From Anaeromyxobacteraceae bacterium (GTDB taxonomy: Bacteria; Myxococcota; Myxococcia; Myxococcales; Anaeromyxobacteraceae): a stretch of DNA of 64,000 nucleotides. The DNA lies in the NCBI GenBank assembly GCA_047602405.1, contig JASGHJ010000001.1, positions 1,888,001-1,952,000 of the forward strand. The letters run 5' to 3'. The position numbers and the translations under genes were made by a program. Shown one piece after another: positions 10,392 to 56,428 of the stretch. Each line of letters opens with the position of its first letter. Position 1 is the first letter of the stretch. The notes under the pieces were generated by a model. It saw only the letters and a list, made by a program, of their open reading frames with translations, made no database searches and had not been told where the DNA came from.

Positions 10392-13236
10392 GTGAAGGAA
10401 CACCGCGAGCGCGGCGAGCCCGTGGAGGTGGCGGGTCCCGGTCGGGAGGCACTCGAGCTCCTGCGCGTCACGCTCTCGAGCATCGGCGACGGCGTCATCT
10501 CCACCGACGACGAGGGGCGCGTGTCCTACGTGAACCCGGTGGCCGAGGCGCTCACCGGGTTCAGCCAGGCCGACGCCCGCGGGCGCCCGTTCACGGAGGT
10601 CTTCCGGATCGTCAACGAGGAGACGCGACGCCCGGTCCAGGACCCGGTGGCGCGGGTGATCCGGGAGGGCAGGATCCTCGGGCTCGCGAACCACACCCTG
10701 CTGCTGCGGCGGGACGGGTCCGAGACGCCGATCGACGACAGCGCGGCCCCCATCCGCGATCGAGAGGGCCGGGTGCGCGGCGTGGTGGTCGTCTTCCGGA
10801 GCGTGGCCGAGCGCCGGCGCGCCGAGCGCGAGGCCGCGCGGCTGGCCGCCATCGTGGAGTCGTCGCAGGACGCCATCGTGAGCAAGGATCTCGACGGCTT
10901 AGTCCTGACCTGGAACGGAGGCGCGGAGCAGGTCTTCGGCTGGCGGGCGGACGAGATCATCGGGCGGAGCATCACGCTCCTCATCCCGCCCGACCGGCTC
11001 GACGAGGAGCGTCAGATCCTCGAGAGCGTGCGCCGCGGCGAGCGCGTCGAGCACTACGAGACCGTGCGTCGCAGGAAGGACGGGCGGCTCATCCAGGTCT
11101 CGCTCGCGATCTCGCCGATCCGGGACGGCGCGGGCCGCATCGTCGGCGCGTCGAAGGTCGCGCGGGACATCAGCGCGCGCGCGGAGGCCGAGGCCCGGAT
11201 CCGCGAGAGCGAGGCGCAGTTCCGCTCGCTCGCGAACGCGCTGCCCGCCATCGTCTGGACCGCCACGCCCGAGGGCGCCATCACCTTCGCGAACGACGTC
11301 TGGTTCGACTACACGGGCCTCGCGCGGGAGGGCGGCATGAGCGGCTGGGCGGAGCGCGTCCTCCACCCGGACGATCGCGACGCGGCGGTGGCCGCCTGGA
11401 GAGCGTCGCTGCGCGACGGCGCGCCCATCGAGACGGAGCTCCGGAACCGCCGCCACGACGGCGCCTACCGGTGGTTCCTCTCGAGGGGGGTGCCCGTCCG
11501 CGACGCGGCGGGTGGGATCACGCGGTGGGTCGGGTCGATGATCGACATCGACGACCGAAAGCGCCTCGAGGGCCGCGCCCGGTTCCTCGCCGGCGCCAGC
11601 GCCGCGCTCGCCGCCACCGTGGATCGCGAGACGGCCCTCCGGCGGCTCACGCGGCTCGCGGTGCCGACGTTCGCCGACTGGTGCGCGGTCGACCTGCTCG
11701 AGCCGGACGGGAGCATCCGCCGGGTCGAGGTCGCCCACGTCGATCCGGCGAAGGAGGCGTACGCGCGTGAGCTCCACGCGCGGTATCCCGCCCGTAGGAC
11801 CGACGCGCGCGGGGTCGGGCTGGTCCTGCGGGAGAAGCGATCGGACCACGAGGCCTTCATCACGGACGAGCTCCTGGAGCGCGGCGCTCGCGACCCCGAG
11901 CACCTCCGCATCGCCCGCTCCCTCGGCCTCCGCTCGTACGTGAGCGTGCCCCTGCGCCTGCGCGGGCAGGTCCTCGGCGCGATCACCTTCGTCACGGCGG
12001 AGTCCGGCCGGGAGTACGGCCCGGACGACGTGGCGGTCGCGGAGGACCTCGCCGCGCGCGCCGCCGTGGCACTCGAGAACGCCAGCCTCGTCGCCGCGAT
12101 GCGCGACGCCGATCGGCGCAAGGACGAGTTCCTCGCGATGCTCTCCCACGAGCTGCGAAATCCGCTCGCCCCGATCTCCAACGCCGCCGCGCTCCTGCGC
12201 GCCGCGGGGCCGGGCGTTCCGGGGACGGACCGGGCCGTGGAGGTGATCGACCGGCAGGTGCGACACCTGGCACGGCTGGTGGACGACCTGCTCGACGTCT
12301 CCCGGATCACGTGGGGGAAGGTCGAGCTGAGGAGGGAGGTGGTCGAGCTCGGGACCGTGATCCGCGCCGCGGTCGAGGAGAGCCGGGGCACGATCGAGCG
12401 CCGGGGCCACGCGCTCGCGCTCGAGCTGCCAGGGGAGCCCATCGCGCTCGACGCCGACCCGATCCGCCTGGCGCAGGTCCTCTCGAACCTCCTCGTGAAC
12501 GCCGCGAAGTACACCGATCCAGGTGGACACATCCGGCTGTCCGCCGCCCGGGACGGGGACGAGGCGCGCGTGACCGTCCGCGACGACGGGATCGGCATCC
12601 CCGCGGCAGCGCTGCCCCGCATCTTCGAGCTTCTTCTCGCAGGTACCCGGCACGCACGGGCGCTCGGAGCGGGGGCTCGGCCTGGGCCTCACGCTGGTGC
12701 GGCGGCTGGTGGAGCTGCACGGCGGGTCGGTGATCGCGACGAGCCCGGGCCCGGGACGGGGCAGCGAGTTCGTCGTGCGGCTCCCGGTGGCGCGAGCGAG
12801 CGCACCCGCGACGGCGGCGACGGCGGAGGCGCCCCGGGCCCGCACCGGCCGTCAGCGGATCCTCGTCGTCGACGACAACCGCGACGCGGCCGACAGCCTG
12901 GCCGCCCTCCTGGAGCACGGAGGGCACGAGGTCCGGGTGCTCAACTCCGGCGCCGAGGCGGTGGACGCGTGCGCCCGGCTGCGCCCCGACCTCGTCCTGC
13001 TCGACCTCGGGCTGCCTGGGATGGACGGCTACGAGGTGGCGCGGCGCATCCGGGCGCTGGAGCACGGCCGCGGCGTCTTCATCGCGGCGCTCACCGGCTG
13101 GGGGCAGGCCGAGGATCGTCGCCGCACCCGGGAGGCGGGCTTCGACCGGCACCTCACGAAGCCCATCGACGTCGAGGTGCTCTCCGAGGTCCTGCGGTTC
13201 GTGCAAGACGGTGGTCCCGCAGCCCGGGGAGCCTAG
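10392..13236 (+). CDS. Hybrid sensor histidine kinase (3 PAS, GAF, HisKA, HATPase, receiver); +1 frameshift near 12631
   Basis: PAS motifs, FLAMLSHELRNPL, NLLVNAAKYT, DDGIGI; after the shift GLGLGL..VELHGG and receiver ILVVDDN/DLGLPGMDG. Confidence 0.9.
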
Positions 13237-13504
13237 GGCGGGCGCAGCCGGGGGCTCCGCAGACCGGGACCGCCTCGCCACGGCACACGCAAACGAGCGT
13301 CGCGTAGCCGTCGCACGCGCACCACTCGCCTTGCTCGTATCCCGTCCGGCGACACTGGATCGCGCAGACGGCGTCCACGTCCTCGACCCGCTTCGAGCCG
13401 GGCGTGAGCTCCGCGACGGGCGCGGCGCGCTCGGGCGCCGGGTCGCCGCAGGCCGCGAGGACGAGCGCGAGGATGAGGCCAGGCAGCGGCCTTGCCCTGC
13501 TCAT
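13154..13504 (-). CDS. Small Cys-rich lipoprotein; C-terminus uncertain (overlaps kinase end)
   Basis: GGGAGG RBS, lipobox LAAC, CAIQC...GEWCAC...CVC. Confidence 0.6.
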   Translation of the reverse strand: MSRARPLPGLILALVLAACGDPAPERAAPVAELTPGSKRVEDVDAVCAIQCRRTGYEQGEWCACDGYATLVCVCRGEAVPVCGAPGCARPRLPGLRDHRLARTAGPRRAPRRRWAS

Positions 13505-13932: not shown

Positions 13933-14619
13933 GTGGCCGCGAAGCCCTGGAACAACCCGTTCGGCGAGCTGAAGGCGCTCAAGAAGGCGGCGGAGGCCGA
14001 GGCCGAGGCCGCCCGGAAGAAGGCCCGCGAGCCGCCCCCCCCGCCCTCGCCCGTGGAGCCCCCGCCGGAGCGCCCGCGCAGCGAGGCCGAGCTCTGGGCG
14101 GAGGCCACGCTCGGCGCCCGGCCGGTCGAGCGCGGGACCGAGCGCGTCTCGCGCGCCGCGCCCAGCCTGCCGCCCGACAAGTACTGGCACCCGGACCTCG
14201 AGGCCGTGGACGCCCTGCGCGCCCTCGTCTCGGGCGACGCGCCCTTCGACCTCTCCGACACGGACGAGTACGTGGAGGGCTGCGTCGCGGGGCTCGACCA
14301 GGCCGTCGTGAAGAAGCTCCGCCGCGGCGAGTTCGCGGTGCAGGGCCACGTCGACCTGCACGGGCTCACCCGCGGCGAGGCGAAGGCCGCGGTCGACGAC
14401 TTCCTCAGGAAGGCCCGCGGCGCGGGGAAGCGCTGCGTGCTCGTGGTGCACGGGCGCGGGCTGCACTCGAAGGACCAGCTCCCGGTGCTGAAGGACGCGC
14501 TCCGCAGCTGGCTCGCCTCGGCGCGCTTCGCGCGGCACGTGCTCGCATTCGCGACCGCCCGCCCCGCGGACGGCGGGGCGGGGGCGGTCTACGTGCTGCT
14601 GCGGCGGCCGGGGCGCTAG
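13933..14619 (+). CDS. Smr domain (small MutS-related) protein
   Basis: [27 protein letters not shown]. Confidence 0.9.
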
Positions 14620-15116
14620 CGCAGCTCGACCATCTGCCCGCGGAAGGCGACCGCCGCCGGGTCGTCCCGCACGCTGGTGCTCCCCGGCTCGGCCTGCACG
14701 CGGAGCTCGCCCTCCGCGCCCGGGGGGAGGTGAGGCTGGCCGGGCTGCGCGCGGCTCCACCCTGCGTTGCCCGAAGGAATGGCGTACCCGCGCGTCTCGG
14801 TGCCGGAGCGGGTGCGGATGCGGAACCCGTCGGTGAGGGCGGTCCACGGGAGGGGCGTCGTGCCCCGGTTCACGGCCGATGCCTTCACCACGTTCAGCCA
14901 GGAGCTCTTCCCGAACGCCGTGTGGTGCTCCTCGACCAGCACCTGGTGCACGCGCACCTCGACGTCGCCGCTCCGGAACGTGAACGGCGCGGCGCTCACC
15001 GGGTGTTCGTCGACGTAGACCTTCCAGCCGGGCTTCGCGGCCTTGCCGGAGCCGGATACCGTGCAGCCGGCGGCGAGGAGGCCGGCGAGGGCGAGCAGCG
15101 AGGTGGTCGAACGCAT
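14616..15116 (-). CDS. Hypothetical lipoprotein
   Basis: GGAGGAG RBS; lipobox LAAGC. Confidence 0.75.
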
Positions 15117-15186
15117 GCGGTGACTCCTCCAGGTTGCGGCCCGATTGTACCTCCCCCGGGGCGGCCTCCTCGGCGCCCCCGGCAGG

Positions 15187-18100
15187 TCATCGCCCCACCG
15201 CCTCCGGCTCCCGCACCTCCGCGAGCCACGCGTCCACGAAGGCCCGGTCGGCCTCCGGCGCCGCCGCGCGGAGCCGCGCGTGGAGCTCCCGCGCCGTCGC
15301 CCGCCCCCCGGGCCCGCGGTGGGCGGCGGCGAACGCGGCCAGCACGCCGTCGAGGCGGTCGGGGCCGAGCCGCTCGCGCAGCGCCTCGAAGGCGACGAGC
15401 GCCTTCGAGTAGTAGAGGTGCGGGACGTCCCCGGTGATCTCGACGAGCGGCGCCTCCTCCGACCCTCCGCGGCGGCGGAGGTACCGTTCGAGCTCGAACG
15501 CGCGCAGGCTCCGGACCTGCTCCGGGCCGCGCAGCGCCTCGAGCACCCGCGCCTCGGCGTACTTGGTCACGCCCTCGACGAGCAGCGCCGCGCCCGGCCC
15601 CGCGGCGGGCGCGACCTCGTGCCCCCACCACTGGTGCGCCACCTCGTGGGCGACCCGGCGCACCACGAGATCGATGGGCTGCTCGCGCCGCCCGTTCACG
15701 GCGAACACGCGGTGCTCGCCGAGCAGGACCACGCCCGGCATCGCGTAGCCGCCGAAGTCCCAGGTGGACGGCACCTCCACGAGCCGCAGCGCGGCGTGGG
15801 GGTACGGGCCGAAGCGGGCCTGCAGCACCTCGAGCGCGCCGCGGGCGGCCTCGAGGATCGCGGCCCGGTTCCAGGGGTGGCCGGGGTGCGCGTACAGCTC
15901 CACCTCCACCTCGCCGTGGCGCGCGCGCGTCACCTCGTACCGGGCGGAGGTCACCGCCAGGGCCCCGTGCACGGGGCGGTCGGTGCGCCACCGGGACAGT
16001 GCGCGGCCACCCTCCGTCCACGCCTGCTCGAGCCGCCCGGGCGCGACCGCGACCTGGTCGAGGTCGGTGGAGACGGTGAGGTCGAGGTTCACCCACGGCG
16101 AGACCGGAGCCCCGTCGCCGTCGCCGGGGATGGCGCGGGCGCGGCCGCGCTCCGGGAGCCCCGCGGCGCGCCGCTCCCGCGGCTCCACGAGCTCGTACGA
16201 GCCGCGGTAACCCACGCCCGGGAACGCCCGGTGGCCGAACACGAGCGAGCCGTTCGCGACGACGTCGGCGTCCGACGGATCACCGGGCGGGTGCTCGAGG
16301 TCGAAGGCGAGCGCGGTCCGCTCCCCGGGGGCGAGCGGCGGATCGAGCGAGAAGGTGAAGACGCCGTGTCGGGCATCGGCGGCGGGCGGCCCGGCGCGGT
16401 CGAGCGCGAGCGAGACCACCCGGGCCTCGCGGCGCACGGTGACGTGGACGCTCGCGATCGGCCGGGCGCCGTCGTTGACGAGCCGGAGCGTGCCGCGCGA
16501 CCGGTAGCGCCCCGCCCCGGGCTCGAGCTCGAGCCGTGCCTCGATCGTCTCGATCCGCGGCTGGGGCGCGTCGGCGACCGCGCCGTAGGTGCGCTCGTAG
16601 GCGGCCTTCCCGGCGCTGACCTCCGCCCGCGTGCGGTGGCCGCCCTGCGCCGCGAGCCCCGCGTGGAGCCGTACGCCGGCCGCGACGGCGACGAGCGCGA
16701 GCGCCGCGGCCGCGGCGAGGAGCCCGCGGGTCGCGCGGGCCGGCCGGGCGCCCCGCCGGACGAGGAGGCCCGCGCCGGCGAGGAGCAGCCCGAGCACGGC
16801 GGCGCCGTACGCCCCGCGGAGCGCGAGGTCCGGGAGCGTCGCGCCGAAGCCGGCGAGGTCGGACCAGCGGAGGCGGGGGAGACTTCCCGGGCGCAGGAGG
16901 GGGTGCTCCACCCCGAGGAGGTCGGCCCGCAGGAGCAGCGCCGCGAGGGGGAGCGTCAGGAGGAGCCCCACGTGCCGCGCCGGCGCGAGCACGTGGACGG
17001 CCGCGCAGCCGGCCGCGAGGAGCACGAGCTCCGCGGCGCCGCCCGCGGCGAGCGCCAGGGTCACGCCGGGCTGGAAGGCGGGGGCCCGGAAGAGGACCTG
17101 GGTGGCGAGGACGGTCGCGGCGCCGGCGAGCGCCAGCGCCGAGGCGAGCGCCGCGAGCGCCCCGACCTTCGCGAGCAGGATCACCTCGCCGGGGACGGGG
17201 GCCGCGTGGACGATCCCCTCGACACCCACCGTGCGCTCCCGCCAGAAGATCTCGGAGGCCCAGAGCAGCACGGCGACGGTGCCGAGCACGGTGAGCGGCT
17301 CGTCCAGGCGAGGGGCGAGGAGCCCGGCCAGCGGGAGGAAGCCCGACCCGTACTCGCCACGCGTCACGGCCGGCCAGAGCTCCGGCACGAGGTAGACGAG
17401 GAAGCAGCCGACGAGCAGCGGGAACGGGAACCCCCGCAGCGCGAGCCGGGCCTCGAGCGCCGTGGACGAGGCCAGCGAGGCGATCCAGCGCGGGCGCGGC
17501 GGTGAGCCCCGCCGGACGGGCGGCGTCGGGACCGGTCCGGACTCCGGCTCGCGCCGCAGGCGACCGCCGGGTTCGAGGAGGCGGAACGGATGGCGCCACG
17601 CGGTCGCGCCGAGGACCGCCGCCGACACGGCGACCCACAGGAGCCGGTTCGCGAGGAGGGCGCCCGCGAGCGGCGGCAGGCGGCCGTTGCGCTCGGCGAG
17701 CGTGAAGTGCCGCGTCGCCTCGAAGAACGCGGACAGGCCCACCGGGTCGAGGAGCGCGGCGAGCCGATCCGGCCCGGCGCCGGGCGAGGAGGCGGCCATG
17801 ACGGGCGAGGAGGTCAGGGTGGCCGCGACGAAGTAGAGGACGTAGAGCGCCACGCTCGTGACGTGGCAGGCGGCGGCGCTGCGGGTCAGGGCGCCCACCG
17901 CGAAGAGCGCGGCGGCGGCGACGAGCACGCCGGGCAGGGCGAGCACGGCGAGCGCCCAGAGGTAGGGCCCGACGCCAGGCGCCCCGAGGCGGTCCAAGGG
18001 GATCGCGCCGGACAGCGGCGCGGCCACCATGCCCGCCACCCCCGCCGAGAGCACCGCGAGCGCGGCGAGGAGGGCGCCCGCGAAGCGGCTCCCGAGGAAC

Positions 18101-18378
18101 GCGCCGCGGCGGACCGGGGTCGAGAAGATGACCTCCTCGAGGCGGTGCTCGCGGTCGCGGAGGATGGCGCCCGACACGAGGACGCCGAGCGGGAACACCG
18201 TGGCGAGCGTGAGCAGGCCCGTGATCTCCGCGACGAGGTAGGGCGAGTTCGCGTGGGCGTCGCCGCCCCCGAGGCCCGCGGTCAGCGCGAACCCGAAGAG
18301 GGCGAAGAGCGCCGCGGCAGCGGCGAGCGCCGGCTGCCGGAGCTGGGTGCGGAGCTCGAAGAGGAGGAGGGATCCCAG
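15187..18378 (-). CDS. ABC-2-type permease fused to M1-family (gluzincin) aminopeptidase; start uncertain, probably CTG
   Basis: Multi-TM N-terminal half; AHEVAHQWWG...VEGVTKY and YYSK; frame stays open upstream of 18198 to a CTG at 18378 behind GGAGG. Confidence 0.8.
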   Translation of the reverse strand: MGSLLLFELRTQLRQPALAAAAALFALFGFALTAGLGGGDAHANSPYLVAEITGLLTLATVFPLGVLVSGAILRDREHRLEEVIFSTPVRRGAFLGSRFAGALLAALAVLSAGVAGMVAAPLSGAIPLDRLGAPGVGPYLWALAVLALPGVLVAAAALFAVGALTRSAAACHVTSVALYVLYFVAATLTSSPVMAASSPGAGPDRLAALLDPVGLSAFFEATRHFTLAERNGRLPPLAGALLANRLLWVAVSAAVLGATAWRHPFRLLEPGGRLRREPESGPVPTPPVRRGSPPRPRWIASLASSTALEARLALRGFPFPLLVGCFLVYLVPELWPAVTRGEYGSGFLPLAGLLAPRLDEPLTVLGTVAVLLWASEIFWRERTVGVEGIVHAAPVPGEVILLAKVGALAALASALALAGAATVLATQVLFRAPAFQPGVTLALAAGGAAELVLLAAGCAAVHVLAPARHVGLLLTLPLAALLLRADLLGVEHPLLRPGSLPRLRWSDLAGFGATLPDLALRGAYGAAVLGLLLAGAGLLVRRGARPARATRGLLAAAAALALVAVAAGVRLHAGLAAQGGHRTRAEVSAGKAAYERTYGAVADAPQPRIETIEARLELEPGAGRYRSRGTLRLVNDGARPIASVHVTVRREARVVSLALDRAGPPAADARHGVFTFSLDPPLAPGERTALAFDLEHPPGDPSDADVVANGSLVFGHRAFPGVGYRGSYELVEPRERRAAGLPERGRARAIPGDGDGAPVSPWVNLDLTVSTDLDQVAVAPGRLEQAWTEGGRALSRWRTDRPVHGALAVTSARYEVTRARHGEVEVELYAHPGHPWNRAAILEAARGALEVLQARFGPYPHAALRLVEVPSTWDFGGYAMPGVVLLGEHRVFAVNGRREQPIDLVVRRVAHEVAHQWWGHEVAPAAGPGAALLVEGVTKYAEARVLEALRGPEQVRSLRAFELERYLRRRGGSEEAPLVEITGDVPHLYYSKALVAFEALRERLGPDRLDGVLAAFAAAHRGPGGRATARELHARLRAAAPEADRAFVDAWLAEVREPEAVGR

Positions 18379-18482
18379 GCGCGGCCTCCGCGGTCGCCGG
18401 AACTACGGAGGGCCGCAGCCGGTATTTCGAGGCCCGGCCCCCGGGGCGGACGCGAGCCGGGCAGGGGGCTCGCCGGGCGGGC

Positions 18483-21400
18483 TCACGGCGGCCGGCCGCA
18501 CCAGTAGCGCTCGACCGCGGACGGCGTCGCCGGCACCGCCACGAAGAAGCCGGCGGGGGTGGCCCCGCCGACCGGGTGCCCGGGCGCGGTGGGCTGGGCG
18601 TGGCAGCCGATGCAGGACGCGAGGGTGTTGCCCGCGAACGAGATCGTGGAGTGGTTGATCCCGTTCACGGCGAGATACGCCGCGTCGGCGCGCGCCTGGT
18701 CGCACCGGAAGTAGCCGACGTTCACGGTGAACGCCGCGGTCGCGGTCCCCTCGTTGCCCGCGGCGTCGACGACCCGGATGTTGAAGCTCACCGGCGAGCC
18801 CGAGACGGGCTGCAGCGCCGGGGAGGCCGGGTTGTAGGCCGGGAGCGCCGTGCTCGTCGTGTCGACCACGGTGAGGCCGGTGTCGAGGGACGCCTCGTAG
18901 CAGTTCGCGCCGCAGACGTTCGACGGCGTGACCACGAGCGGGGTCGTCCCGCGGCGCAGGCTGATCGACTCCCCGGCGCCGAGGGCGCCCGAGAGGGTGA
19001 ACCGGAAGATCGGGGTCGCGTCGTCGGTGTTGCCGCCGTTCGCGATGAGGTTGCTGGCCGGATTGGTCGCGCCGGCGGGTGCGGTCGTGGGCGCGAAGTC
19101 GCTCCGGACCTGGTTGAGGGTGATGGTCTGGGCCGGCGCGACGGTGTCCACGGTGAGGCTGTACGTGCCGCTCGCCGTGCCGGCGATGGGGCCGGCGAGG
19201 GTGTGCACCGTGTACGCGTGCAGGCCCTGGGTCGCGCCGGAGTCCGTGAACGTGCAGGGCGACGCGCAGGTCGAGAGGGGCGTGCCGGCCTGGGCGCCGT
19301 CGCGCAGCACCTCGACCTGGTAGCCGGCCGGGAGCGCCGCGGCGAGGGTGACCGTGAGCGTGGGCGTCGTGTCCGGGATCGCGCCGCCGGAGGCGACGAC
19401 GGTCCCGTTCGGCCGGGTGGGGCTCCCCGTGCCGGACACCGCCGCGCTCGTGATCGTCGCGTTCGGCAGGCTCGTCGCGAGGATGAGGTTCACCGTGTGC
19501 GTCGGGCTCGCCGCGGCGGTGCCGCCGTTGCCCGCGTCGTCGCGGACGTCCGCGCCGTAGGCATGCGAGCCGAGCGCGACCGCGGCCGGCTCGACGTAGG
19601 ACCAGGTGGTGCCGGCCGGCCGGAGCTTCGCGATCTCGACGCCGTCGCGCGTCAGCCGGAGGTAGTCGGTCGCGGCGAGGGCCGCGGTGAGCGTCCCGTC
19701 GATCCGCGGCGTGACGTCGGTCGAGTACGTGTCCGTGCGGACCGCGAGCGCGCCCGAGTCGTCGTAGATCGTGGAGATCGTCGCCCCCTGGGTGGGCGCG
19801 GTGCCGTCGATGGGATCGGAGACCGACGCGCTCGTGAGCCCGAACACCGCGGCGTTCGCCGCCTGCTCGATCCGGGCGCGGAACGCGTAGGTGCCGTCGG
19901 CGAGCGAGGCGCTCGTGAAGGTCCAGCTCGTGGTCGTGACCGTCCCGTTCCCGACCGCCACGTTGTCCCGGTAGACCTTCACGACCTCGCCCGCGACGAG
20001 CGCGCGCTGGAGCGTGCCGGCGAGCACCGGGGTCCGGACGTTGTTGAGGGCCACCGCGCTGTTCACCGGCGCGACCCCGTCGATCGTCGCGAGCGTGGTC
20101 GCCGCGCCGATGAGCGGCACGGAGGAGGTGTTCACCACCACGCTGCGCGAGGCGCCGGAGGCGGGCCCGAGCTGGCCCGCGGCGTCGAGCACCCGGGCCG
20201 TGTACGCGTAGGTGCCGTTCGCGAGCGAGGTGGGCTCGGCGAAGCCGAAGGTCAGGCCCGAGGCGGCCACCGTGGCCACGGCCACCCCGCCCCGGAGCAC
20301 CTGCACCTGCTCCCCGGCGCCGAGCGCCGCGGAGAGCGTGCCGGACACGAGCGGCGTCGGGTCGGCGGTGGTGGCGCCGTCGGCGAGCGCGCCGTTGAAG
20401 TCGTCGGCGATGCCGGTCACGTTCGCGACCTGCGCGGGCGGGACGGTGTCGACCGTGGCGGACCACGGCCCGGAGAAGTTCCCGAGCACGAGCCCCGCCT
20501 CGACCCGCGCGGTCCACGCGTACGTGCCGTCGGCGAGGCTCGAGTCCGTGAAGCTCCAGGTCGTGCCGGTCGCGGCGGCGGCGCCGGCGTCGACGCCGTT
20601 GCGGCGGATGCGCAGCGCGTAGCCCGGCTGCAGCGCCGCCGTGAGGGTGCCGGACACGACCAGCGTCCTCGAGGTGGTCGAGGCGCCGCTCGCGAGCGGC
20701 GCCCCCCCGGCGGTCACATGGGTGATCGAGGCCCCCGGGAGCGCCCCGACGGCCGTGTACGTCGCGGCGGGCGAGCTCGCGCCGACGTTGCCGGCGAGGT
20801 CGATCACCCGCGCCGCGTACGCGTGGGCCGCGAGGGTGAGCGCCGCGGCCTCGGCGTAGGTCCAGCCGGTGCCGCTGACGGTCGCGCTCCCCACGAGGCT
20901 CCCGTCGCGCAGCACCTGCAGCGCCTCGTCCGCGGCGAGGCCCGCGGTGAGCGTACCGTTCACGACGGGCGTCGTGTCGGTCCCGAAGCCGCCCGGCGTC
21001 ACCGCGCCGAGGAGGTCGTCCTGGAAGCCGGTGATGGCGGCGAGCTGGGCGGGCGGGGTCGCGTCGATGCTGAAGGTGAAGCCGTTCGAGGTGGCGCCGA
21101 AGTCGACGCCGGAGACGACCCGCGCCGTGTACGTGAACGTGCCGTCTGCCGGGGCGGCGTCGGTGAACGTCCAGGCCGTGCCGGTCGCGTTCGCCGTGCC
21201 GGCGACGGCGCCGCTCCGGGAGACCTCGAGCGATTCGCCGGAGTCGAGCGGCGCCGAGAGCGACCCGTAGATCACCGGCGCGCGGGTCGCGACGAGGCCG
21301 CCGGGCGGGATGGGCAGCGCTGCGGCGTCGGTGGCGCCGGTCACCGTCGCGGTCGTCTCGAGCGTGGGGAGCAGCCCCGAGCTCGGCTGCGCGCAGGTGG

Positions 21401-23921
21401 GGACCATCGTGTTGAGCGGGCGCGCGAGCACCGACTGGTGGCAGGTGGCGCACACCGTCCCGGGCGGTGTGAACGTGTGGCGCGGCGGGATGGTGCAGGG
21501 ATCGGTGATGAGCGGCGGATCGACGAAGCCGCGCGGAACGAGGCCCGCCGGTGGCGCGCAGCTGGGCCACGCACCCGAGGCCTGGAACGGCTGCTTCCCG
21601 TCCGGGGTCGTGATCGGGTAGTCGATGCGCGCCGGGTTGTGGCACTGCACGCAGACCGTCTCGGCGCGGATGAGGTAGCCGAGCGGCCCCTCGTGGATGC
21701 CCGGCGGGATCTGGCACGCGGGCAGCCCGGTCGTGCTGGGCGCGAGCGCCTGGTACTCGACGAGCGGCCGGTCGAGGTACTGGTGGCACGCGATGCAGTC
21801 GACGCGCGGCCCCTGGCCCTGGGGCCGGTGCTGGCTCGCAGGGTTCGCGGGATCGAACGCCTCGGCGACGCGGCCGCGGACCTTCCAGTAGCCGCCCGCG
21901 TAGTCGACGCCGAGCCCGGTGAGCCGGTCGAACGCGCGCAGGCCGTAGCCGATGTAGCCGCCGGGGAGGAGGTCGCGGAGCGGCGGGAGCCCGAGGACGC
22001 GCACCGGGGTGAGATCCCTGAGGACCATGCCCGCGGTCATGTCGAAGTGCACGCCCCACGCCCAGACCTGGCCGTCGTCGAGCAGCGCCGCGAACACGGC
22101 CTGCTCGGTGAGGAGCTTGCGGATGCCCACGCCCGCCGGGAACCCGGTGATCTGCGTGGGCACGAGGTTGCCGCCGGTGTACGGCAGCGAGGGATCGTGG
22201 GCCACGAAGGCCGGATCGGGCGCGGGGAAGCTGCCCCACTGCCACACCGTCCCGTCGGCCTTCACGACCGCGACGTCGAGGTCGCGCGCCGCGAGCTGCG
22301 TGACGCCCGCGAGCCCGGGGACCTTCGCCGGCGAGGTGGAGCGCCCGTTCCGCAGGCCGTCGCCGAGCAGGCCGTAGCCGGCCTCCGAGCCCCACGCCCA
22401 GACGGTGCCGTCCGCGAGCAGCGCGTAGCTCGCGACCGTCGTCGCGCCGACCGTGAGCGCCTTCGCGGGCAGCGTCACCTGGAGCGGCGTCGTCGAGCGG
22501 CGCAGCTCGGCCCCGGTCTTGCCCTGGCCGAGCTGGCCGTAGGCGTTGTCGCCCCACGCCCAGACGGTGCCGTCGGCGAGCCGCGCGACCGTGTGCGCGA
22601 ACCCGCCCGCCGCGAAGGTGAGCGTCGCGCCGGCGGGGAGCGTCGTGAGCTCGATGCCCGAGCCGCCGGTGGAGGACCGGTTGCCGAGCCCGAGCTCGCC
22701 GTTCACGTTGTCGCCGAGCGCGTAGATCCTGGGCGTGCCGCTCGCCGCGTCCGCCTTGAAGTACCCGCCGCCGTGCCCCATGTTCGCGAAGAGCCCCGCG
22801 GTGCGGGTCACGAAGGAGACCTTCTGGTCGGTGTTGCCCGGCTGCTTGCCGAGGGCGTTGCCCGCCACCCAGCCGGCGACCGTCGAGTACGCCTGGCCGC
22901 CGCTCGTGACCGAGCCGTCGAAGAGGTAGCCCTGGTAGCGCGTGTTGCCGAAGCTCACCAGCGGCGGGAGCTTCTGGGTGACCTCGGCCTTGCCGTAGCG
23001 CTCCACCTGCTGCGCGAGGCCGGAGACGAGCTCGGTGCCGAAGGCGCCGGGCTCGTAGGCGCGCCGGTCGGCGGGCGCGGCGGGGAGGGTGCCGTTCAGG
23101 CCGTCGAGGCGCCCGTCCTTCAGGTCCTCCGCGAGCTCGTCGGTGGCGTCGAGGCCGGGCGAGGTGGACGCGCCGTTCGCGCGCTGGGCGAGCTTCGTGA
23201 GGGCGCCCTCCACGAGCGCATAGCGGCCGCGGGCGTCCGAGCCGAGGCTGCCGGCCGCGTTCTTCGCGTTCCGCTGGCCCGGCAGGCGGGTCAGATCGTC
23301 GAGCTGCAGCGAGGCCGGAAGGAAGGCGTTCAGGACGCCCCGGACGCGGTCGTTCGCGGCCTGGAGCTGCGCCGCCGTGGGCACGCCGTCGACGCGCTCG
23401 GGTGTCGAGCCGGCGGTGAGGACCTGGTGGGCCGCCTCGGTGAACGCGGTGACGCCGACGTTGCGGCGCAGGATCGGCACCCACGCGTGGAGCACGCGGC
23501 CCTCGGGGAACGGCACCGCCGCGTCGAGGCCCTCGTCGTGGATCGTCGCGCTGGCGGTGCCCTTCACGACGACGTGCAGCCAGCCGGTGTAGGTCGGCGA
23601 GGGCTTCGCCGTCACGAGGCCGGTGGTCGCGTCGGTGGGCGCGCTGCCGAGGAGCTCGCCGTCGGCGAGCCACGCCTCCACGGTCGCGCCGAAGAACTTG
23701 CCGCCGATCGCGATCCCGCCCTGGCCGTCGGCGCCGGTGCCGACGCCGTTCACGCCACCGTCCGCGAGGTCCCAGTCGAGGTCGCCGGTGAAGCCGGTGG
23801 AGAGGAGGTTCTTCGCCTGCGGCGGCGGGGAGCCGTCCGGCGCCGGGTCGAGCTTCACGGTGCAGCTGGCCACGGCCAGCGGCATCGCGGCCAGGAGGGC
23901 GAGGCGGGTCGGTGCGCGCAT
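18483..23921 (-). CDS. Giant lipoprotein: RCC1-like repeats, multiheme c segment, tandem Ig-like (Big) domains, C-terminal heme motif
   Basis: Lipobox VASC; DGTVWAWG.N..GQLG repeats; CIACH, CVQCH, CATCH, CIGCH; repeated D.TP...GTL...DGTY.YTAR..D.AGN units. Confidence 0.85.
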   Translation of the reverse strand: MRAPTRLALLAAMPLAVASCTVKLDPAPDGSPPPQAKNLLSTGFTGDLDWDLADGGVNGVGTGADGQGGIAIGGKFFGATVEAWLADGELLGSAPTDATTGLVTAKPSPTYTGWLHVVVKGTASATIHDEGLDAAVPFPEGRVLHAWVPILRRNVGVTAFTEAAHQVLTAGSTPERVDGVPTAAQLQAANDRVRGVLNAFLPASLQLDDLTRLPGQRNAKNAAGSLGSDARGRYALVEGALTKLAQRANGASTSPGLDATDELAEDLKDGRLDGLNGTLPAAPADRRAYEPGAFGTELVSGLAQQVERYGKAEVTQKLPPLVSFGNTRYQGYLFDGSVTSGGQAYSTVAGWVAGNALGKQPGNTDQKVSFVTRTAGLFANMGHGGGYFKADAASGTPRIYALGDNVNGELGLGNRSSTGGSGIELTTLPAGATLTFAAGGFAHTVARLADGTVWAWGDNAYGQLGQGKTGAELRRSTTPLQVTLPAKALTVGATTVASYALLADGTVWAWGSEAGYGLLGDGLRNGRSTSPAKVPGLAGVTQLAARDLDVAVVKADGTVWQWGSFPAPDPAFVAHDPSLPYTGGNLVPTQITGFPAGVGIRKLLTEQAVFAALLDDGQVWAWGVHFDMTAGMVLRDLTPVRVLGLPPLRDLLPGGYIGYGLRAFDRLTGLGVDYAGGYWKVRGRVAEAFDPANPASQHRPQGQGPRVDCIACHQYLDRPLVEYQALAPSTTGLPACQIPPGIHEGPLGYLIRAETVCVQCHNPARIDYPITTPDGKQPFQASGAWPSCAPPAGLVPRGFVDPPLITDPCTIPPRHTFTPPGTVCATCHQSVLARPLNTMVPTCAQPSSGLLPTLETTATVTGATDAAALPIPPGGLVATRAPVIYGSLSAPLDSGESLEVSRSGAVAGTANATGTAWTFTDAAPADGTFTYTARVVSGVDFGATSNGFTFSIDATPPAQLAAITGFQDDLLGAVTPGGFGTDTTPVVNGTLTAGLAADEALQVLRDGSLVGSATVSGTGWTYAEAAALTLAAHAYAARVIDLAGNVGASSPAATYTAVGALPGASITHVTAGGAPLASGASTTSRTLVVSGTLTAALQPGYALRIRRNGVDAGAAAATGTTWSFTDSSLADGTYAWTARVEAGLVLGNFSGPWSATVDTVPPAQVANVTGIADDFNGALADGATTADPTPLVSGTLSAALGAGEQVQVLRGGVAVATVAASGLTFGFAEPTSLANGTYAYTARVLDAAGQLGPASGASRSVVVNTSSVPLIGAATTLATIDGVAPVNSAVALNNVRTPVLAGTLQRALVAGEVVKVYRDNVAVGNGTVTTTSWTFTSASLADGTYAFRARIEQAANAAVFGLTSASVSDPIDGTAPTQGATISTIYDDSGALAVRTDTYSTDVTPRIDGTLTAALAATDYLRLTRDGVEIAKLRPAGTTWSYVEPAAVALGSHAYGADVRDDAGNGGTAAASPTHTVNLILATSLPNATITSAAVSGTGSPTRPNGTVVASGGAIPDTTPTLTVTLAAALPAGYQVEVLRDGAQAGTPLSTCASPCTFTDSGATQGLHAYTVHTLAGPIAGTASGTYSLTVDTVAPAQTITLNQVRSDFAPTTAPAGATNPASNLIANGGNTDDATPIFRFTLSGALGAGESISLRRGTTPLVVTPSNVCGANCYEASLDTGLTVVDTTSTALPAYNPASPALQPVSGSPVSFNIRVVDAAGNEGTATAAFTVNVGYFRCDQARADAAYLAVNGINHSTISFAGNTLASCIGCHAQPTAPGHPVGGATPAGFFVAVPATPSAVERYWCGRPP

Positions 23922-24155: not shown

Positions 24156-24734
24156 GTGACCGAGCACGAGCGCCACCTCCGCGAGTGGGTCGAGGAGCTC
24201 GCCGCGCAGCTGGAGGGCGACGGCCTGCCGCGCATGGGCGGGCGGATCTTCGCGTGGCTCCTCGTGTGCGAGCCGGCGGAGCAGTCGATGGAGGCGCTCG
24301 CCCGCGCGCTCGGGGGCTCGAAGGCCTCCATGAGCACGATGACCCGCCTCCTCGTGGGCGCGGGCTTCGTCGAGCGCGTTCGCCGGCCCTTCGAGCGGCG
24401 CGACGTGTTCCGGGTGCCGGAGGGCCAGTGGGGCCGGTTCTGGCAGGCGCAGATGGCCCGGCTCCACCAGGTCACGCAGATCCTGACCCGCGGCGCCGGG
24501 CTCGTCGCCGCCCGGCCCGCGCCGGTCCGCCGCCGTGTCGAGGACACGCTCGAGCAGTACCGGTTCCTCGAGGGCGAGCTCGAGCTGCTCGCGCAGCGCT
24601 GGCGGGAGCGCTTCCTCGCGGCTGAGCTCCGCGCCGCCGCCGGCGCGCCGGCCGGGGCGCCGCGGGATGGGGCGACCCCACGCCGCACCGGCAAGCCGCG
24701 CGCCGGTCGACCGCGGCCGCGGCCCCGCGCCTAG
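24156..24734 (+). CDS. GbsR/MarR family transcriptional regulator
   Basis: GLPRMGGRIFAWLLVCEPAEQSMEALARALGGSKASMSTMTRLL. Confidence 0.85.
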   Translation: MTEHERHLREWVEELAAQLEGDGLPRMGGRIFAWLLVCEPAEQSMEALARALGGSKASMSTMTRLLVGAGFVERVRRPFERRDVFRVPEGQWGRFWQAQMARLHQVTQILTRGAGLVAARPAPVRRRVEDTLEQYRFLEGELELLAQRWRERFLAAELRAAAGAPAGAPRDGATPRRTGKPRAGRPRPRPRA

Positions 24735-24786: not shown

Positions 24787-25487
<701 letters not shown>

Positions 25488-25491
<4 letters not shown>

Positions 25492-27677
25492 CGCCGAAGA
25501 GGGACAGCATCCGCATCCTCCTCACGATCGCCTTCCGGAACCTGCTCGCCTCGCCGGTCCGGACCGCGATCCTGGGTGGGATCATCCTGCTCGGCTCGCT
25601 CATCGTGGTGGTGGGCACGTCCGTGCTCGACTCCATCGATCGCGGCATGCGCACGAGCATCCAGGGCAGCCTCGGCGGCCAGCTCCAGCTCTACGACGGC
25701 CGCTCGGAGGACCAGCTCGCGCTCTACGGCGGCATGACCGGCGAGTCGCGCCTCGAGCCGATCGAGGACTTCTCGGTCGTGAAGGCGGCCCTCGAGAAGG
25801 TCCCCGGCGTGAAGCAGATCGTGCCGATGGGCATCGACCAGGCGATGGTCGCGACCGGCAACGCCTTCGACCTCGCCCTCGAGCGGCTGCGCAACGACGT
25901 GCGGCGCCTGGAGGCCGGCGAGCGGGGCCCGGAGCTCGAGCGTTCCTACACGGCGCACGTCGCGCACGTGAAGCGGATGATCGAGCTCCTCGCGGCGGAC
26001 TACGCGCAGGCGGCGGTCATCGTCGACCTCGACTCGAAGGAGGGCGCCGAGCGCCGCGCCGAGGCGAAGAGCCTGACCCGCGTGCGGGAGCCGGAGTTCT
26101 GGGAGGGCCTCGACCGCGACCGCTACGCCCGGCTCGAGTTCCTCGAGAACAAGATCGCGCCGCTCGTGATGGACGGCGGGTTCACCTTCCTGCGCTACGT
26201 GGGGACCGACCCGAAGGCGTTCTTCGAGGCGTTCCCCCTCGCCGAGGTCTCGAAGGGCCAGATGATCCCGGAGGGCAAGCGCGGCATCCTCGTCGGCGAG
26301 CAGTACGCCGACGAGTGGCTGAAGCTCAAGAACGCCCGCCGGCTCGACCAGATCCGCGACCGGCGGCGGGACCGCGGCAAGAAGATCGCCGACGACGAGG
26401 AGCTGCAGCGCTGGGTGCGCGAGAACCGGAGCGGGATCCGCGAGATCCAGCTCCAGCTCGACCCGGTGCGCGCCGAGGAGGTGGCGGCGGCCCTCAGGCC
26501 GGCGCTCGGCGGCGAGGGCGACGACCTCGAGAAGCTCCTCCAGAAGCTCTTCGCCACCACCGACCAGGACTTCGACCAGAAGTACAAGCTCTTCTACGAC
26601 GTGGTCGCGCCGAGGATCCGGCTCTACCAGGTGAACGTCGGCGAGACGATCACCATCAAGGCCCCGTCGAAGAGCGGCTACTTCAGCTCGATCAACGTGA
26701 AGGTCTACGGCTTCCTGCGCTTCAAGGGCATCGAGAAGTCGGGCATCGCCGGGATGATGTCGGTGATGGACATCCACTCCTTCCGCGACCTCTACGGCTA
26801 CCTCACGCCGGAGAAGCAGGAGGAGATCGCGGCGATGAAGGCGAAGCTCGGCGCGCGCGAGGTCTCGCGCGAGGACGCCGAGGCCGCGCTCTTCGGCGGC
26901 GGGGCCGCGCCGGCGGTGGAGGCGGAGGCGCGCTCGACCACCATCGACGACGCGAAGCTCGTGGCCGGGGCGGGGAGGGCGAACGCCCAGGCCGCGGCGT
27001 CCGCCGACCGCGTCTACACGGCGGCCGAGGTCGAGAAGGGCGTCGCGCTCAACGCGGCCGTCATCCTGAAGGACCCGGCCCACATGGCCGAGGCCCGCGA
27101 CGACATCGAGCAGGCCCTCGCCGCCGCGGGCCTGGGCTACCACGAGGAGAAGGACGCGAAGGGCGAGGTGGTCTCGAAGGCGGGCGTGAAGGTGCTCGAC
27201 TGGCAGACCGCCTCGGGCATCGTCGGCCAGTTCGTGACCCTGCTCCGGGTGGTGCTCTTCACCGCGGTCCTCATCTTCTTCGCCATCGCGCTCGTCATCA
27301 TCAACAACGCGATGGTCATGGCGACGCTCCAGCGCGTGAAGGAGATCGGCACCATGCGCGCCGTCGGCACGCAGCGGCGCTTCGTGGTGGTCATGCTGCT
27401 CGTCGAGATCGTGTCGGTGGGGCTCGTCTTCGGCCTCGGCGGCGCGGTGCTCGGCGGCGTGGTGGTGGGGCTCATCCGGCTCGCGGGCGGCATCCCCGCC
27501 ACCACCGACATGCTCTACTTCGTCTTCTCCGGCCCGGCGCTCTTCCCGCGCCTCGGCGCGCTCGCGGTGGGGACCTCGCTCACCATCGTGCTGCTCGTCG
27601 CGATCCTCTCCGCCCTCTATCCGGCGCTGCTCGCCATGAAGGTCTCGCCCGTCGAGGCGATGGCCACGGAGGAATGA
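25488..27677 (+). CDS. ABC transporter permease (FtsX/LolE-type) with large periplasmic region
   Basis: IAFRNL N-terminus, QRVKEIGTMRAVG, LYPALLAMKVSPVEAM. Confidence 0.9.
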
Positions 27678-28993
27678 CCGTGCTCCTCATGGACCTCGAG
27701 CTCGCGGGCCGCAACCTCGCCCGCCACGCCCGCCGGAACCTGTTCCTCGGCGGCGCGCTCGGCGCGGTGACCTTCCTCCTCGTGCTCCTCGGCGGCCTCA
27801 CCACCGCCATGGAGCAGGCGATGATGCAGTCCGCCGAGACGCTCCTCACCGGCCACGTCAACGTGGGCGGCTTCTTCAAGGTGACCGCCGGCAGCGCGGC
27901 GCCGCTCGTCTCGGACTACCCGAAGGCGCTCGAGACCCTGAAGAAGGAGGTGCCGGACATCGACTTCTACACCTCGCGCGTGCGCGCCTGGGCGAAGGCG
28001 GTCTCCGAGACCTCCTCAATGGACCTCGTGCTCGGCGGCATCGAGGTCGACGAGGAGCCGGCGCTCCCGAAGGTGCTCAACGTCATGGAGGGCAGCCTCG
28101 ACGAGCTCCGGAAGCCCGGCACGCTGCTCCTGTTCGAGGCGCAGGCGAAGCGGCTCAAGGTGAAGGTGGGCGACGCGATCACCATCTCCGCCCCGACCGC
28201 CCGCGGGGTTAACAACACCGCCGACGTGCGGGTGGCCGCGGTCGCCCGCGACGTGGGGCTGCTCTCGTCCTTCTCGGCGCTCATGGAGGCCTCCTCCGTG
28301 CGCGCGCTCTACGGCCTCAACACGACCACCACCGGCGCCATCCACGTGTACCTGAAGGACGCCTCGCCCGAGCACCTCAAGGCCGTCGCCGCGCGGCTGC
28401 GCACCGCCTACTCGAACGCGGGCTGGCGGGTGATGGAGCCGGAGGCGCAGCCGTACTGGATGAAGCTCATGCAGACGGTGCCGGCGGAGGACTGGACCGG
28501 CCAGAAGCTCGACATCACCACCGCCGACGACGAGATGGGGCAGTTCAAGCAGTTCATCACGGCGCTCCGGGTGGTGACCGGCCTGCTCGTCTTCATCCTC
28601 ATGATCGTGGTGGTCATCGGCATCCTCACGACGCTCACGATCGCGGTGCGCGAGCGGACGAAGGAGATCGGCACGCTGCGCGCCATCGGCATGCAGCGGA
28701 CGAAGGTGCTCTGGCTCTTCGTGCTCGAGACCGGGCTCCTCGGCCTCCTCGGCACCCTGGCCGGGGCCCTGGGCGCGGCCGCGCTCGCCGGCCTCGTCAA
28801 CCGCGCCTCCATCGCGCTGCCCGCCGCGGTCCAGGTGTTCCTCGCGATGGACCACCTCCGCATCGCGCTCGTCCCCGCCGCGATCCTCGGAAACATCGTG
28901 TTCCTCACGGTCGTGACCGTGTTCGCCTCGATCTTCCCCGCCCGCCGCGCCGCGCGCCTGAAGCCCGTCACGGCCATGCACCACATCGGATGA
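27674..28993 (+). CDS. ABC transporter permease (FtsX/LolE-type)
   Basis: LAGRNLARHARRN, ERTKEIGTLRAIG, PARRAARLKPVTAM; ATGA overlap. Confidence 0.9.
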   Translation: MTVLLMDLELAGRNLARHARRNLFLGGALGAVTFLLVLLGGLTTAMEQAMMQSAETLLTGHVNVGGFFKVTAGSAAPLVSDYPKALETLKKEVPDIDFYTSRVRAWAKAVSETSSMDLVLGGIEVDEEPALPKVLNVMEGSLDELRKPGTLLLFEAQAKRLKVKVGDAITISAPTARGVNNTADVRVAAVARDVGLLSSFSALMEASSVRALYGLNTTTTGAIHVYLKDASPEHLKAVAARLRTAYSNAGWRVMEPEAQPYWMKLMQTVPAEDWTGQKLDITTADDEMGQFKQFITALRVVTGLLVFILMIVVVIGILTTLTIAVRERTKEIGTLRAIGMQRTKVLWLFVLETGLLGLLGTLAGALGAAALAGLVNRASIALPAAVQVFLAMDHLRIALVPAAILGNIVFLTVVTVFASIFPARRAARLKPVTAMHHIG

Positions 28994-29775
28994 CCGCCAT
29001 GAACCGCCTCGCCACCGCCGCCGCCCTCGCCCTCGCCGGCCTCCTGGCCGGGCCCGCCCGCGCCCTGACCGACGCGGAGCTCGCCTCCATCGTGAAGGTC
29101 ATCGACGACCGCCAGCGCAACTCCGGCGACTGGAAGGCGCTCTGCTGGATGGAGGCGAAGGAGAAGGGCAAGACCGACGTCGTCTACGAGCTGCTCGTCT
29201 ACCGCCGCGACGCGGACGACAAGCAGATGTTCCTGTTCACGAAGCCGAAGGCGGAGGCGGGGAAGGGCTACCTGCGCCTCGACAAGAACCTCTGGCTCTT
29301 CGACCCCTCGACCGGCCGGTGGGAGCGCCGCACCGAGCGGGAGCGCATCGGCGGCACCGACACCCGCCGCGGCGACCTCGACGAGTCGCGCCTCGCCGAG
29401 GAGTTCGACGCGAAGTACCTCGGCGAGGGCACCCTGGGCGCCTTCACCGTCCAGAAGATCCAGCTCGACGTGAAGCCGAACGTGGACGTCGCGTTCCCGC
29501 GCATCGAGCTGTGGGTCGACAAGGCGACGCTCAACGTGCTGAAGCGCTCGGAGTACGCGCTCTCCGGGAAGCTGATGCGCACGAACTACTACCCGCGCTG
29601 GAAGAAGATCTACTCCGAGTCGAAGAAGGGCGAGGTCTGGTTCCCGGAGGAGATGCGGATCTTCGACGAGATCGAGAAGGGCAACTCGACGACCATCCTG
29701 ATCAAGGAGGTCGACCTGAGGCCCCTCGAGGCGAACATGTTCACGAAGGCGTGGCTGGAGTCGAAGTCCAGGTAG
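28990..29775 (+). CDS. LolA-like outer-membrane lipoprotein-sorting protein
   Basis: Signal peptide; FTKPKAEAGKGYL...NLWLFDP, LWVDK; typical position after Lol-like permeases. Confidence 0.75.
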   Translation: MTAMNRLATAAALALAGLLAGPARALTDAELASIVKVIDDRQRNSGDWKALCWMEAKEKGKTDVVYELLVYRRDADDKQMFLFTKPKAEAGKGYLRLDKNLWLFDPSTGRWERRTERERIGGTDTRRGDLDESRLAEEFDAKYLGEGTLGAFTVQKIQLDVKPNVDVAFPRIELWVDKATLNVLKRSEYALSGKLMRTNYYPRWKKIYSESKKGEVWFPEEMRIFDEIEKGNSTTILIKEVDLRPLEANMFTKAWLESKSR

Positions 29776-29780
29776 CCACC

Positions 29781-31371
29781 ATGAGAACCTTCGCGCTCGT
29801 CGTCGTCGCTGCGCTGCCGGCGCTGGCTCTCCCTCAGGAGCGTCCCACCGAGGACGAGCTTCTTCGGGAAGCCCGCCGCGCCCGCGGAGCCCTCCACGCA
29901 GAAGCCGCCGCCCGACCCGGGCGACCGCGCCGCGCACGAGGCCGAGATGTTCGGCTCCACTGGCGCGCCCGCCTCGCAGCCGCCGCCGCCCGAGGGGCTC
30001 ATCAAGAAGGACCAGGAGGATCCGCTCAAGATCGGCGGGCAGGTCTACCTGCGTGGCCAGGCCGCCTGGTACGAGCGCCAGTCGGGCTCGGAGGGTCCGC
30101 TCTCCACCCCGAACCTCGTCGACCTCTTCCTCGACGCGCGCCCCAACGACCGCGTCCGCGCCTTCGCGCTCGCGCGCACGAGCTGGAATCCCACCGGCGG
30201 CGGCTCGGCCGGGCCGTTCCAGGACCTCCTCGGCGCGCTCGGCGTGCCGCCGGCCTCCACCGCGAGCACGCAGCCCCGCGCCGTGCTCGACCAGCTCTGG
30301 CTCAACTTCGACGCGGACCGGAAGGTCTTCGTCACGGTCGGCAAGCAGCACGTGAAGTGGGGCGTGGGCAAGTTCTGGAACCCCACCGACTACCTCCACC
30401 CCACGAAGCGCGACCCGCTCGCCGTCTTCGACGCGCGCACCGGCACGACGATGATCCGCGCGCACGTGCCCTGGGAGAAGTACGGCTGGAACTTCTACGG
30501 CATCGGCCTCCTCGAGGACGCCTCCGGCGCGGCGCAGCCGGTCGACACCGTCGGCCGGGTCGGCGGCGGCGCGCGCGCCGAGCTCGTCCTCGGCGCCGCG
30601 GAGCTCGGCCTCGACGCGCTCGTGCAGAAGGGCAACCACCCGCGCTTCGGCGTGGACCTCTCCGCCGGCATCTGGGAGCTCGACCTCTACTCCGAGCTCG
30701 CGGTGCGCACGCAGACCGACGTCGGCCGCTGGAGACAGGTGGACGCGACGGCCGGGCTCAACCAGCGCTACGCGCGGGTGGAGAGCTCCGGCTTCGAGCC
30801 GCAGCTCGTGGTGGGCGGCAGCTGGACGCGGCAGTACGGGAAGGACCAGGACACGTTCACGCTGGGCCTCGAGTACTTCTGGAACGGCTTCGGGTACGAC
30901 GACCCGCACATCTACCCGTTCCTCCTCGTCGGCGCGCCCGCCTGGAACGGCAAGGAGCCGGTCGTCGGAGGCGTGCCGAGCGACTACCTCACGTTCCGCG
31001 ACCCGCGCGCGTTCACGTCCTTCTACCTGGGCCGGCACTACCTCGGCGCGTACGCGATGCTGCCGCAGCCCGGCTCGTGGAACGACACCACCTTCACGCT
31101 CTCGGCGCTCGGAAACGTCACCGACAAGAGCTTCGTGGTCCGGCTCGATCACTCGGTGCTCGTGAACACCTACCTGCGCGTCGAGACCTTCGTGTCCGTG
31201 AACGGCGGCGCGAAGGGCGGCGAGTTCCGCCTGGGCCTCGACCTCGAGCCGCAGCTCGTGGTGAAGGGCGTGGCGCCGGACCCGGACATCTACTTCCCGG
31301 CGCAGGGGTCCACGCTCTCCATCCCGGCCCCGGTCGTGTCGGCCGGCGTGGCGTTGAGGGTGAGCCTCTAG
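29781..31371 (+). CDS. Putative outer-membrane beta-barrel protein; +1 frameshift near 29860
   Basis: Signal peptide from ATG 29781 joins the 29947 ORF if one T is removed; TVGKQHVKWGVGKFWNPTD; amphipathic C-terminal strand. Confidence 0.7.
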
Positions 31372-51542: not shown

Positions 51543-51544
51543 TT

Positions 51545-51889: not shown

Positions 51890-51920
51890 GCGGTTTGACT
51901 GGACCGGCCCTGGGGGCCGG

Positions 51921-53057: not shown

Positions 53058-53060
53058 GGT

Positions 53061-54937: not shown

Positions 54938-54939
54938 CG

Positions 54940-56411: not shown

Positions 56412-56428
56412 GTCCGAACTCTCCTGTC

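Follow-up and report, generated by a model that had tools for sequence, protein, structure and literature searches.

A giant lipoprotein carrying four CxxCH motifs, an RCC1-like propeller and an Ig stalk in an Anaeromyxobacteraceae bacterium: a candidate heme-propeller redox enzyme of the cell envelope

The window analysed in this study is a 64,000-nucleotide stretch of an Anaeromyxobacteraceae genome. One large open reading frame on its minus strand, at 18483-23921, was examined, and its product (P0001) was divided into the following parts:

18483..23921, minus: whole gene P0001, a 1,812-aa lipoprotein with four heme motifs (single ORF, 109 homologues)
23862..23921, minus: signal peptide and lipobox with Cys20 (sequence inspection; Cys aligned in 105 of 109 homologues)
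23700..23786, minus: Gly/Asp-rich linker, aa 46-74 (conserved motif)
22962..23699, minus: unnamed N-domain, aa 75-320, with a beta part and a helical part (AF2 model; no Pfam or NCBIfam match)
21837..22961, minus: predicted seven-bladed RCC1-like propeller, aa 321-695 (Pfam, AF2 model, fold search)
21387..21809, minus: triheme module, aa 705-845, with CxxCH at 709, 757 and 824 (sequence; conservation in homologues)
18717..21350, minus: stalk of eight Big_13-type Ig repeats, aa 858-1735 (Pfam; repeat count)
18486..18710, minus: tip monoheme domain, aa 1738-1812, with C1740, H1757, CIGCH at 1770-1774 and YWC at 1806-1808 (sequence, homologues, model)

The GC3 of the reading frame is about 0.98 over its full length. 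This value and the 109 homologues rule out a shadow ORF. No sigma-70 promoter or terminator match was found for the gene. A family search with aa 320-860 yielded 1,579 matches; among the best 120, which were considered further, 109 span the whole region and share 47-72% identity. Organism labels among these homologues are Rubrivivax, Ideonella, Burkholderiaceae or Burkholderiales, and most homologues carry none. P0001 belongs to an unnamed family of heme-propeller lipoproteins whose labels are mostly of Burkholderiales.

P0001 contains only 19 Cys residues, and in a control of 5,000 shuffled sequences one CxxCH motif occurred nine times and two motifs never, which argues that the motifs are not due to chance. 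A preliminary description, made from the letters alone, had noted a single large lipoprotein frame with a lipobox, RCC1-like repeats, three clustered CxxCH motifs, a distal CIGCH and a repeated C-x-IPP-x-H stretch in front of two of the clustered motifs; each of these was recovered here, the last at aa 736-743 and 809-815. Its count of roughly nine Ig-like repeats has to be corrected to eight. In Pfam, RCC1/WD40_RLD was matched at aa 399-631, with PF00415 and PF13540 above cut-off, and six stretches matched Big_13; the heme regions and the N-terminal region gave no Pfam match, and NCBIfam gave none anywhere in the protein. All 30 matches (E ≤ 1) of a sequence search against solved structures were RCC1-like propellers. 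A search of full-text literature, with most subscription papers and all supplements beyond its reach, found no description of this architecture; genome-wide cytochrome tables in supplements could list members. The view that the architecture matches no characterised family is supported for Pfam, NCBIfam, solved-structure sequences and the literature so covered. Taken together, P0001 is real, conserved and apparently undescribed, a probable multiheme lipoprotein of the envelope for which a function can be proposed from sequence and models.

Sec export and acylation at Cys20 are predicted, and the protein is likely fixed to the cell envelope by lipid. The linker that follows bears the motif [GA][GAS]DG[GASDQ]G, present in 96 of 109 family members and in 59 of 142 wider N-domain proteins. 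The region of about 400 aa described beforehand as unrecognised is only in part enigmatic: an N-domain of about 245 aa is indeed unnamed, the remainder being the Gly/Asp linker and the first two propeller blades. The N-domain is common to many different lipoproteins, a profile of aa 65-320 matching 625 clusters (50% identity, E ≤ 0.001), and falls in unnamed clusters of the protein atlas. Among 142 newly listed N-domain proteins only seven contain CxxCH, all of them members of the heme-propeller family, and many of the others carry a heme-less RCC1-like propeller. Geobacterales lipoproteins have an N-domain homologous to that of P0001 (hhalign probability 99%, E 7e-18); related heme-less N-domains occur at 30 Geobacterales loci plus L122, and in a second set of 30 loci. 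The N-domain may be an export or display module.

We had presumed that the N-domain might be equivalent to the secretion domain of PgcA. This idea found no support: the related N-domains at the Geobacterales loci are heme-less, and the two PgcA-like proteins available for comparison lack the N-domain (E > 4). The two lipoproteins come from one Geobacteraceae genome (L207:1252-2448 and L216:2136-3740). One has four monoheme domains on Pro/Thr linkers, the other a different N-domain and a single heme.

The triheme module has four extra Cys residues (736, 788, 809 and 843) and two candidate distal His residues (743 and 815). All 15 Cys and His residues of the module are retained in 108-109 of 109 homologues, so that the extra Cys and the axial His candidates proposed earlier are as well conserved as the heme motifs themselves. 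For hemes 2, 3 and 4, a His precedes the CxxCH motif and two Cys flank it; heme 1 has neither feature. Disulfide pairing and distal ligands can be proposed from motif order and conservation. Profile comparison of the four short heme modules gave no significant homology among them (probability 0.2-5%). The triheme module seems confined to this architecture, since all 21 matches lie behind this type of propeller, and none of 420 shorter-protein candidates in a limited, word-based search represented a stand-alone module. A protein language model showed a weak likeness of the module to c3, c7 and MtrC domains (score 0.88), which we regard as a lead only; leads for it in the protein atlas all scored below 0.9. 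Heme-bearing members formed one clade against five heme-less relatives (support 100/99).

Four of 13 metagenome loci (L224, L227, L230 and L231) have genes for cytochrome c maturation (ccm) next to the homologue, which favours real c-type hemes. At L231 ccmB and ccmC enclose the gene pair, and at L226 DsbD flanks the homologue. The host genome (G000) contains three Cytochrom_C_asm genes. With its conserved motifs, export signal and available maturation genes, P0001 is likely a c-type multiheme protein.

For the propeller, an AlphaFold2 run on aa 21-860 with 91 sequences gave a pTM of 0.90 and a mean pLDDT of 87, supporting the placement of N-domain, propeller and triheme module as one unit. 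The predicted strands form seven four-stranded blades (aa 321-689). Fold search of the propeller matched UVR8 (Z 31.6, rmsd 3.1, 332 aligned), BLIP-II (Z 17.8, rmsd 3.0, 242 aligned), HERC and RCC1 propellers; propeller and Ig domains filled the fold-search lists, which thus say nothing of the N-domain, the triheme module or the tip domain. None of the UVR8, HERC, RCC1 and BLIP-II structures listed carries c-type hemes, whereas P0001 combines its heme module with an invariant polar face and a unique blade-7 insertion. According to the accessible text of one report, RCC1 and BLIP-II are interactors or binders (PMC9218822). These closest folds are binding scaffolds, which counts against an enzymatic function of P0001.

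The polar face comprises R328, N380, H383, R546, D547, D549, E606, Q607, Y659, R662, D665 and R666. Loops were assigned from the predicted strands and the general blade topology of RCC1, in which the A-B loops share one face. Polar residues conserved to at least 97% occupy 14 of 60 A-B-loop positions, compared with 21 of 319 positions in the rest of the propeller region. Most of these face residues persist in three divergent members that bear hemes. In contrast, none of the 18 heme-less relatives examined retains the set; the face positions vary freely there, and the blade-7 insertion GG[FY]xGYGxRPFDR is absent as well. The face residues may, on the other hand, have no role beyond docking the heme module or binding heme propionates. 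A covariation signal between heme module and propeller was gap-driven (128 sequences, effective 55) and did not place the module on the propeller; an enzymatic pocket and a docking surface would look alike in these data.

The stalk matched SiiE repeats best in Foldseek, albeit weakly (E 0.003), and a profile count gave about 2-12 repeats among members with a tip. In the tip domain the order C..H..CxxCH..C is the same as around hemes 2 and 3, and of 116 members 107 have C..H..CxxCH..YWC, in 14 cases with CX3CH or CX4CH in place of CxxCH. Conservation of all four heme motifs, expected from the preliminary description, was thus confirmed for head and tip. The other nine members lack a recognisable tip domain; some are truncated and some end in other domains. 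A model of the last Ig repeat and the tip (aa 1545-1812) reached a mean pLDDT of 89, with generic Ig/FN3 folds as its only matches. The last two Ig repeats contain CxxxC pairs at aa 1552-1556 and 1670-1674, the latter being CGxxC in the family consensus.

A stretch of 877 heme-free residues separates heme 3 from the tip heme, which, if extended, far exceeds the range of electron tunnelling. The heme chain of P0001 is therefore not a wire. This bears on the suggestion that P0001 passes electrons to minerals or electrodes outside the cell, as a terminal cytochrome or an adhesin with tethered hemes as in PgcA. The lipobox, the separated heme domains and the SiiE-like Ig repeats are in line with such a role, as are the 45 ORFs of the host with at least two CxxCH motifs and two cytochromes with 14 and 19 CxxCH motifs (L224:17489-21246), located 3-6 kb downstream of a homologue that itself follows ccm genes. 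Moreover, the tethered monoheme domains of PgcA can exchange electrons, as stated in the accessible part of the source (PMC10570954). However, MtrB/PioB was detected in only 1 of 15 Burkholderiales carriers of the giant gene compared with 26 of 157 non-carriers (Geobacter-type porins being outside this count), and in neither of the two Anaeromyxobacter carriers, whose genomes are 98-99% complete. In the window, inspection without a profile revealed no OmbB/ExtB-type porin gene adjoining the giant gene. In addition, the stalk is not lined with hemes and varies in length, the tip can be missing, only two of 37 genus genomes have the gene, and the invariant propeller face would be left unexplained. 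A link to extracellular electron transfer, as proposed at the outset, was not supported by these data; we regard this role as improbable, and a classical electron conduit is less likely than a heme-propeller redox enzyme.

The two genus genomes with the gene are the host and G010; many of the 36 others are incomplete. In the host the gene is located between an Smr gene and a Lol-like ABC operon, which abut in 5 of 6 non-carrier loci examined, and it represents an insertion. A 22-row tree was rooted on the five heme-less relatives. In this tree the two Anaeromyxobacter-type proteins formed the sister group of three proteins with a Rubrivivax or Burkholderiales label (100/99), and a constraint uniting the 15 Burkholderiales rows was rejected (p-AU 0.0007). 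The host copy was thus likely acquired from Burkholderiales. We do not consider this transfer proven, because a quick 65-row tree preceded the choice of rows and the two Anaeromyxobacter-type proteins sit on a long branch.

The divergent operon (24787-31371, plus strand) encodes an ABC ATPase, two FtsX/LolCE-like permeases, a LolA-like protein and a probable outer-membrane barrel, the last without a Pfam or NCBIfam match. It is a candidate second lipoprotein export system. A specific link to the giant gene was ruled out, as all 37 genus genomes have the operon, including the LolA-like gene; its transporter could nonetheless serve the giant lipoprotein as an exporter. Several other genes of the window deserve mention. 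A MarR-like gene (24159-24734, plus), divergent from the giant gene, occurs in G000, G010 and G021 and is absent from five other relatives examined. Downstream, an ABC2-membrane/M1-peptidase fusion and a small lipoprotein (14619-18402, minus) are both missing at the G010 locus. A probable hybrid sensor kinase (10392-13307, plus) shows an apparent frame change before its receiver domain, which lies in another frame (12574-13236) and appears to reflect a frameshift or a sequencing error. At 50778-64000 (minus) we found a NiFe hydrogenase cluster with a confirmed large subunit; judged by eye, its maturation genes are apparently duplicated and a transposase-like fragment lies near 59173-59811.

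The giant proteins of G000 and G010 are 77% identical, compared with 92-99% for their neighbours, as would be expected for exposed proteins or replaced alleles. Such divergence, and the variable faces of the heme-less relatives, which are typical of binding propellers, would suit an adhesin or recognition protein in which the face merely docks the heme module and the hemes scavenge peroxide, NO or similar oxidants. Yet the head is the most conserved part of the protein (mean conservation 0.70-0.71, compared with 0.46 in the stalk), and the membrane-distal end is a heme domain, not a known binding domain. We therefore give this explanation little credence.

To examine the gene neighbourhoods elsewhere, we surveyed 172 genomes of the family of G061 (Burkholderiales). 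The giant gene was present in 15 of them, an N-domain in 35, MtrB/PioB in 27 and an orthologue of a WD40-caspase protein in 32. The latter accompanied all 15 carriers and only 17 of 157 non-carriers; the genomes are kin, so that these counts overstate independence, and we claim no statistical weight for them. The WD40-caspase gene was found at 18 of 27 loci outside Anaeromyxobacter, and of the nine loci lacking it, five are short or stop close to the gene. Most copies have an apparent signal peptide, and the His/Cys dyad is intact in 16 of 16 aligned sequences. The surroundings of the homologues repeatedly contain genes for ECF sigma factors, OmpA, DUF4384 kinases and two-component systems, and Burkholderiales neighbours are often signalling and secretion genes.

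These neighbours would fit a redox or ligand sensor as well as they fit an enzyme. The head of such a sensor would bind a signal that is relayed by the WD40-caspase, a Ser/Thr kinase or an ECF sigma/anti-sigma pair, and the protease may cut and release the lipoprotein. However, the protease is associated with the N-domain superfamily as a whole: an N-domain is present in 29 of the 32 protease genomes, and 31 of 52 protease genes have an N-domain gene no more than 8 kb away. The WD40-caspase therefore says little about the hemes. Furthermore, G000 and G010 have only distant caspase-like genes (best E 5.7e-7 and 4.8e-6, compared with at most 1e-60 in Burkholderiales) and keep the giant gene intact; the host copy likely arrived without its usual protease partner. 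The sensor of the earlier suggestion stays a live rival, though an unlikely one.

WD40-caspase genes were also seen beside N-domain lipoproteins with or without hemes, e.g. at L231:2375-11658, L233:7156-12771 and L116:723-7357, and OmpA, DUF4384 kinase or ECF sigma genes often accompany such pairs. Some genomes of the G061 family have 8-11 N-domain genes. A full-text literature search, with most subscription papers beyond its reach, found no description of the lipoprotein and WD40-caspase pair. At L110:1516-5535, L109:13805-19998 and L118:6536-11577, homologues adjoin secretin and FHIPEP genes (type III-like) or genes that resemble TssK/L/M of type VI secretion, a resemblance judged by eye.

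Several known systems resemble P0001 in part. MtrC, OmcA and MtrF are multiheme outer-membrane lipoproteins with extra Cys pairs. They have ten hemes compared with four CxxCH motifs in P0001, which lacks a cytochrome Pfam match, and the MtrB porin of the Mtr conduit is missing from most carriers of this family. SiiE, a heme-free type I secretion substrate, shares the Big_13 repeats and differs from P0001 with its lipobox and eight repeats. Propellers combined with heme c are known from a group of enzymes in which a beta-propeller adjoins an active-site heme and further hemes act as relays, or a cytochrome domain sits on a tether; it includes cytochrome cd1, quinohemoprotein dehydrogenases and, as the tethered case, cellobiose dehydrogenase. 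The alpha subunit of hydrazine synthase likewise has a beta-propeller beside the active-site heme, according to the accessible text (PMC12758564). We see only an analogy in these enzymes, since P0001 differs by its propeller class, lipid anchor and Ig stalk. Neither hydrazine synthase nor cd1 nor quinohemoproteins occur among the sequence and fold matches listed for P0001, an absence which excludes nothing. PgcA of G. sulfurreducens is described as "heme-tethered redox strings" and, as far as the accessible parts of both reports go, is likewise a lipoprotein, in which the N-terminal domain is folded and a long tether spaces out the c-heme domains (PMC10570954, PMC5732950). Its own features in the same texts are helical OmcF-like monoheme domains of about 65 aa on Pro/Thr linkers (PMC10570954, PMC5732950). 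P0001 instead combines a predicted propeller with a Cys-stapled triheme module, and its linkers are folded Ig domains.

At slightly less than even confidence, we favour the idea that P0001 is a heme-propeller redox enzyme anchored to the envelope, with a further heme tethered at its tip. It draws on a polar face that is invariant only in heme-bearing members and on a first heme lacking the His and Cys pair of the others; P0001 does not show any catalytic motif recognisable from known enzymes. The N-domain, the seven-bladed propeller and three c-type hemes would form a compact head acting as a heme-dependent redox enzyme, with a small ligand bound in the Arg/Asp/Glu/His/Tyr pocket on the A-B-loop face. 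Heme 1, which has neither its own distal His nor a pair of flanking Cys, would be the reactive one, with a distal site left free or taken by a propeller residue, for instance Y659 or H383. The role of His/His relays, closed by the disulfides C736-C788 and C809-C843, would fall to hemes 2 and 3. The fourth heme (H1757, C1740-C1808) would act on its eight-repeat stalk as a tethered electron shuttle or a separate contact, reaching the head or an outside partner through bending of the stalk. The family likely originated by addition of the heme module to a variable binding lipoprotein. A fuller scheme, in which an RCC1-like binding fold has turned into a heme enzyme, the Ig arm swings its heme and a caspase-like protease cuts or activates N-domain lipoproteins, is doubtful as a whole.

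The finding adds an unnamed family of four-heme lipoproteins, whose heme module, tip domain and N-domain are unrecognised by the libraries searched. If the head is catalytic, it would constitute an enzyme on an RCC1-like fold with a short list of residues to mutate. The pair of an N-domain lipoprotein and a WD40-caspase with a signal peptide suggests a testable role for secreted bacterial caspase-like proteases. Lipoproteins of this kind in Burkholderiales metagenomes should not be scored as electron-transfer genes on account of their CxxCH motifs. If the predicted hemes and head hold, P0001 would be an unusual envelope cytochrome rather than an electron wire.
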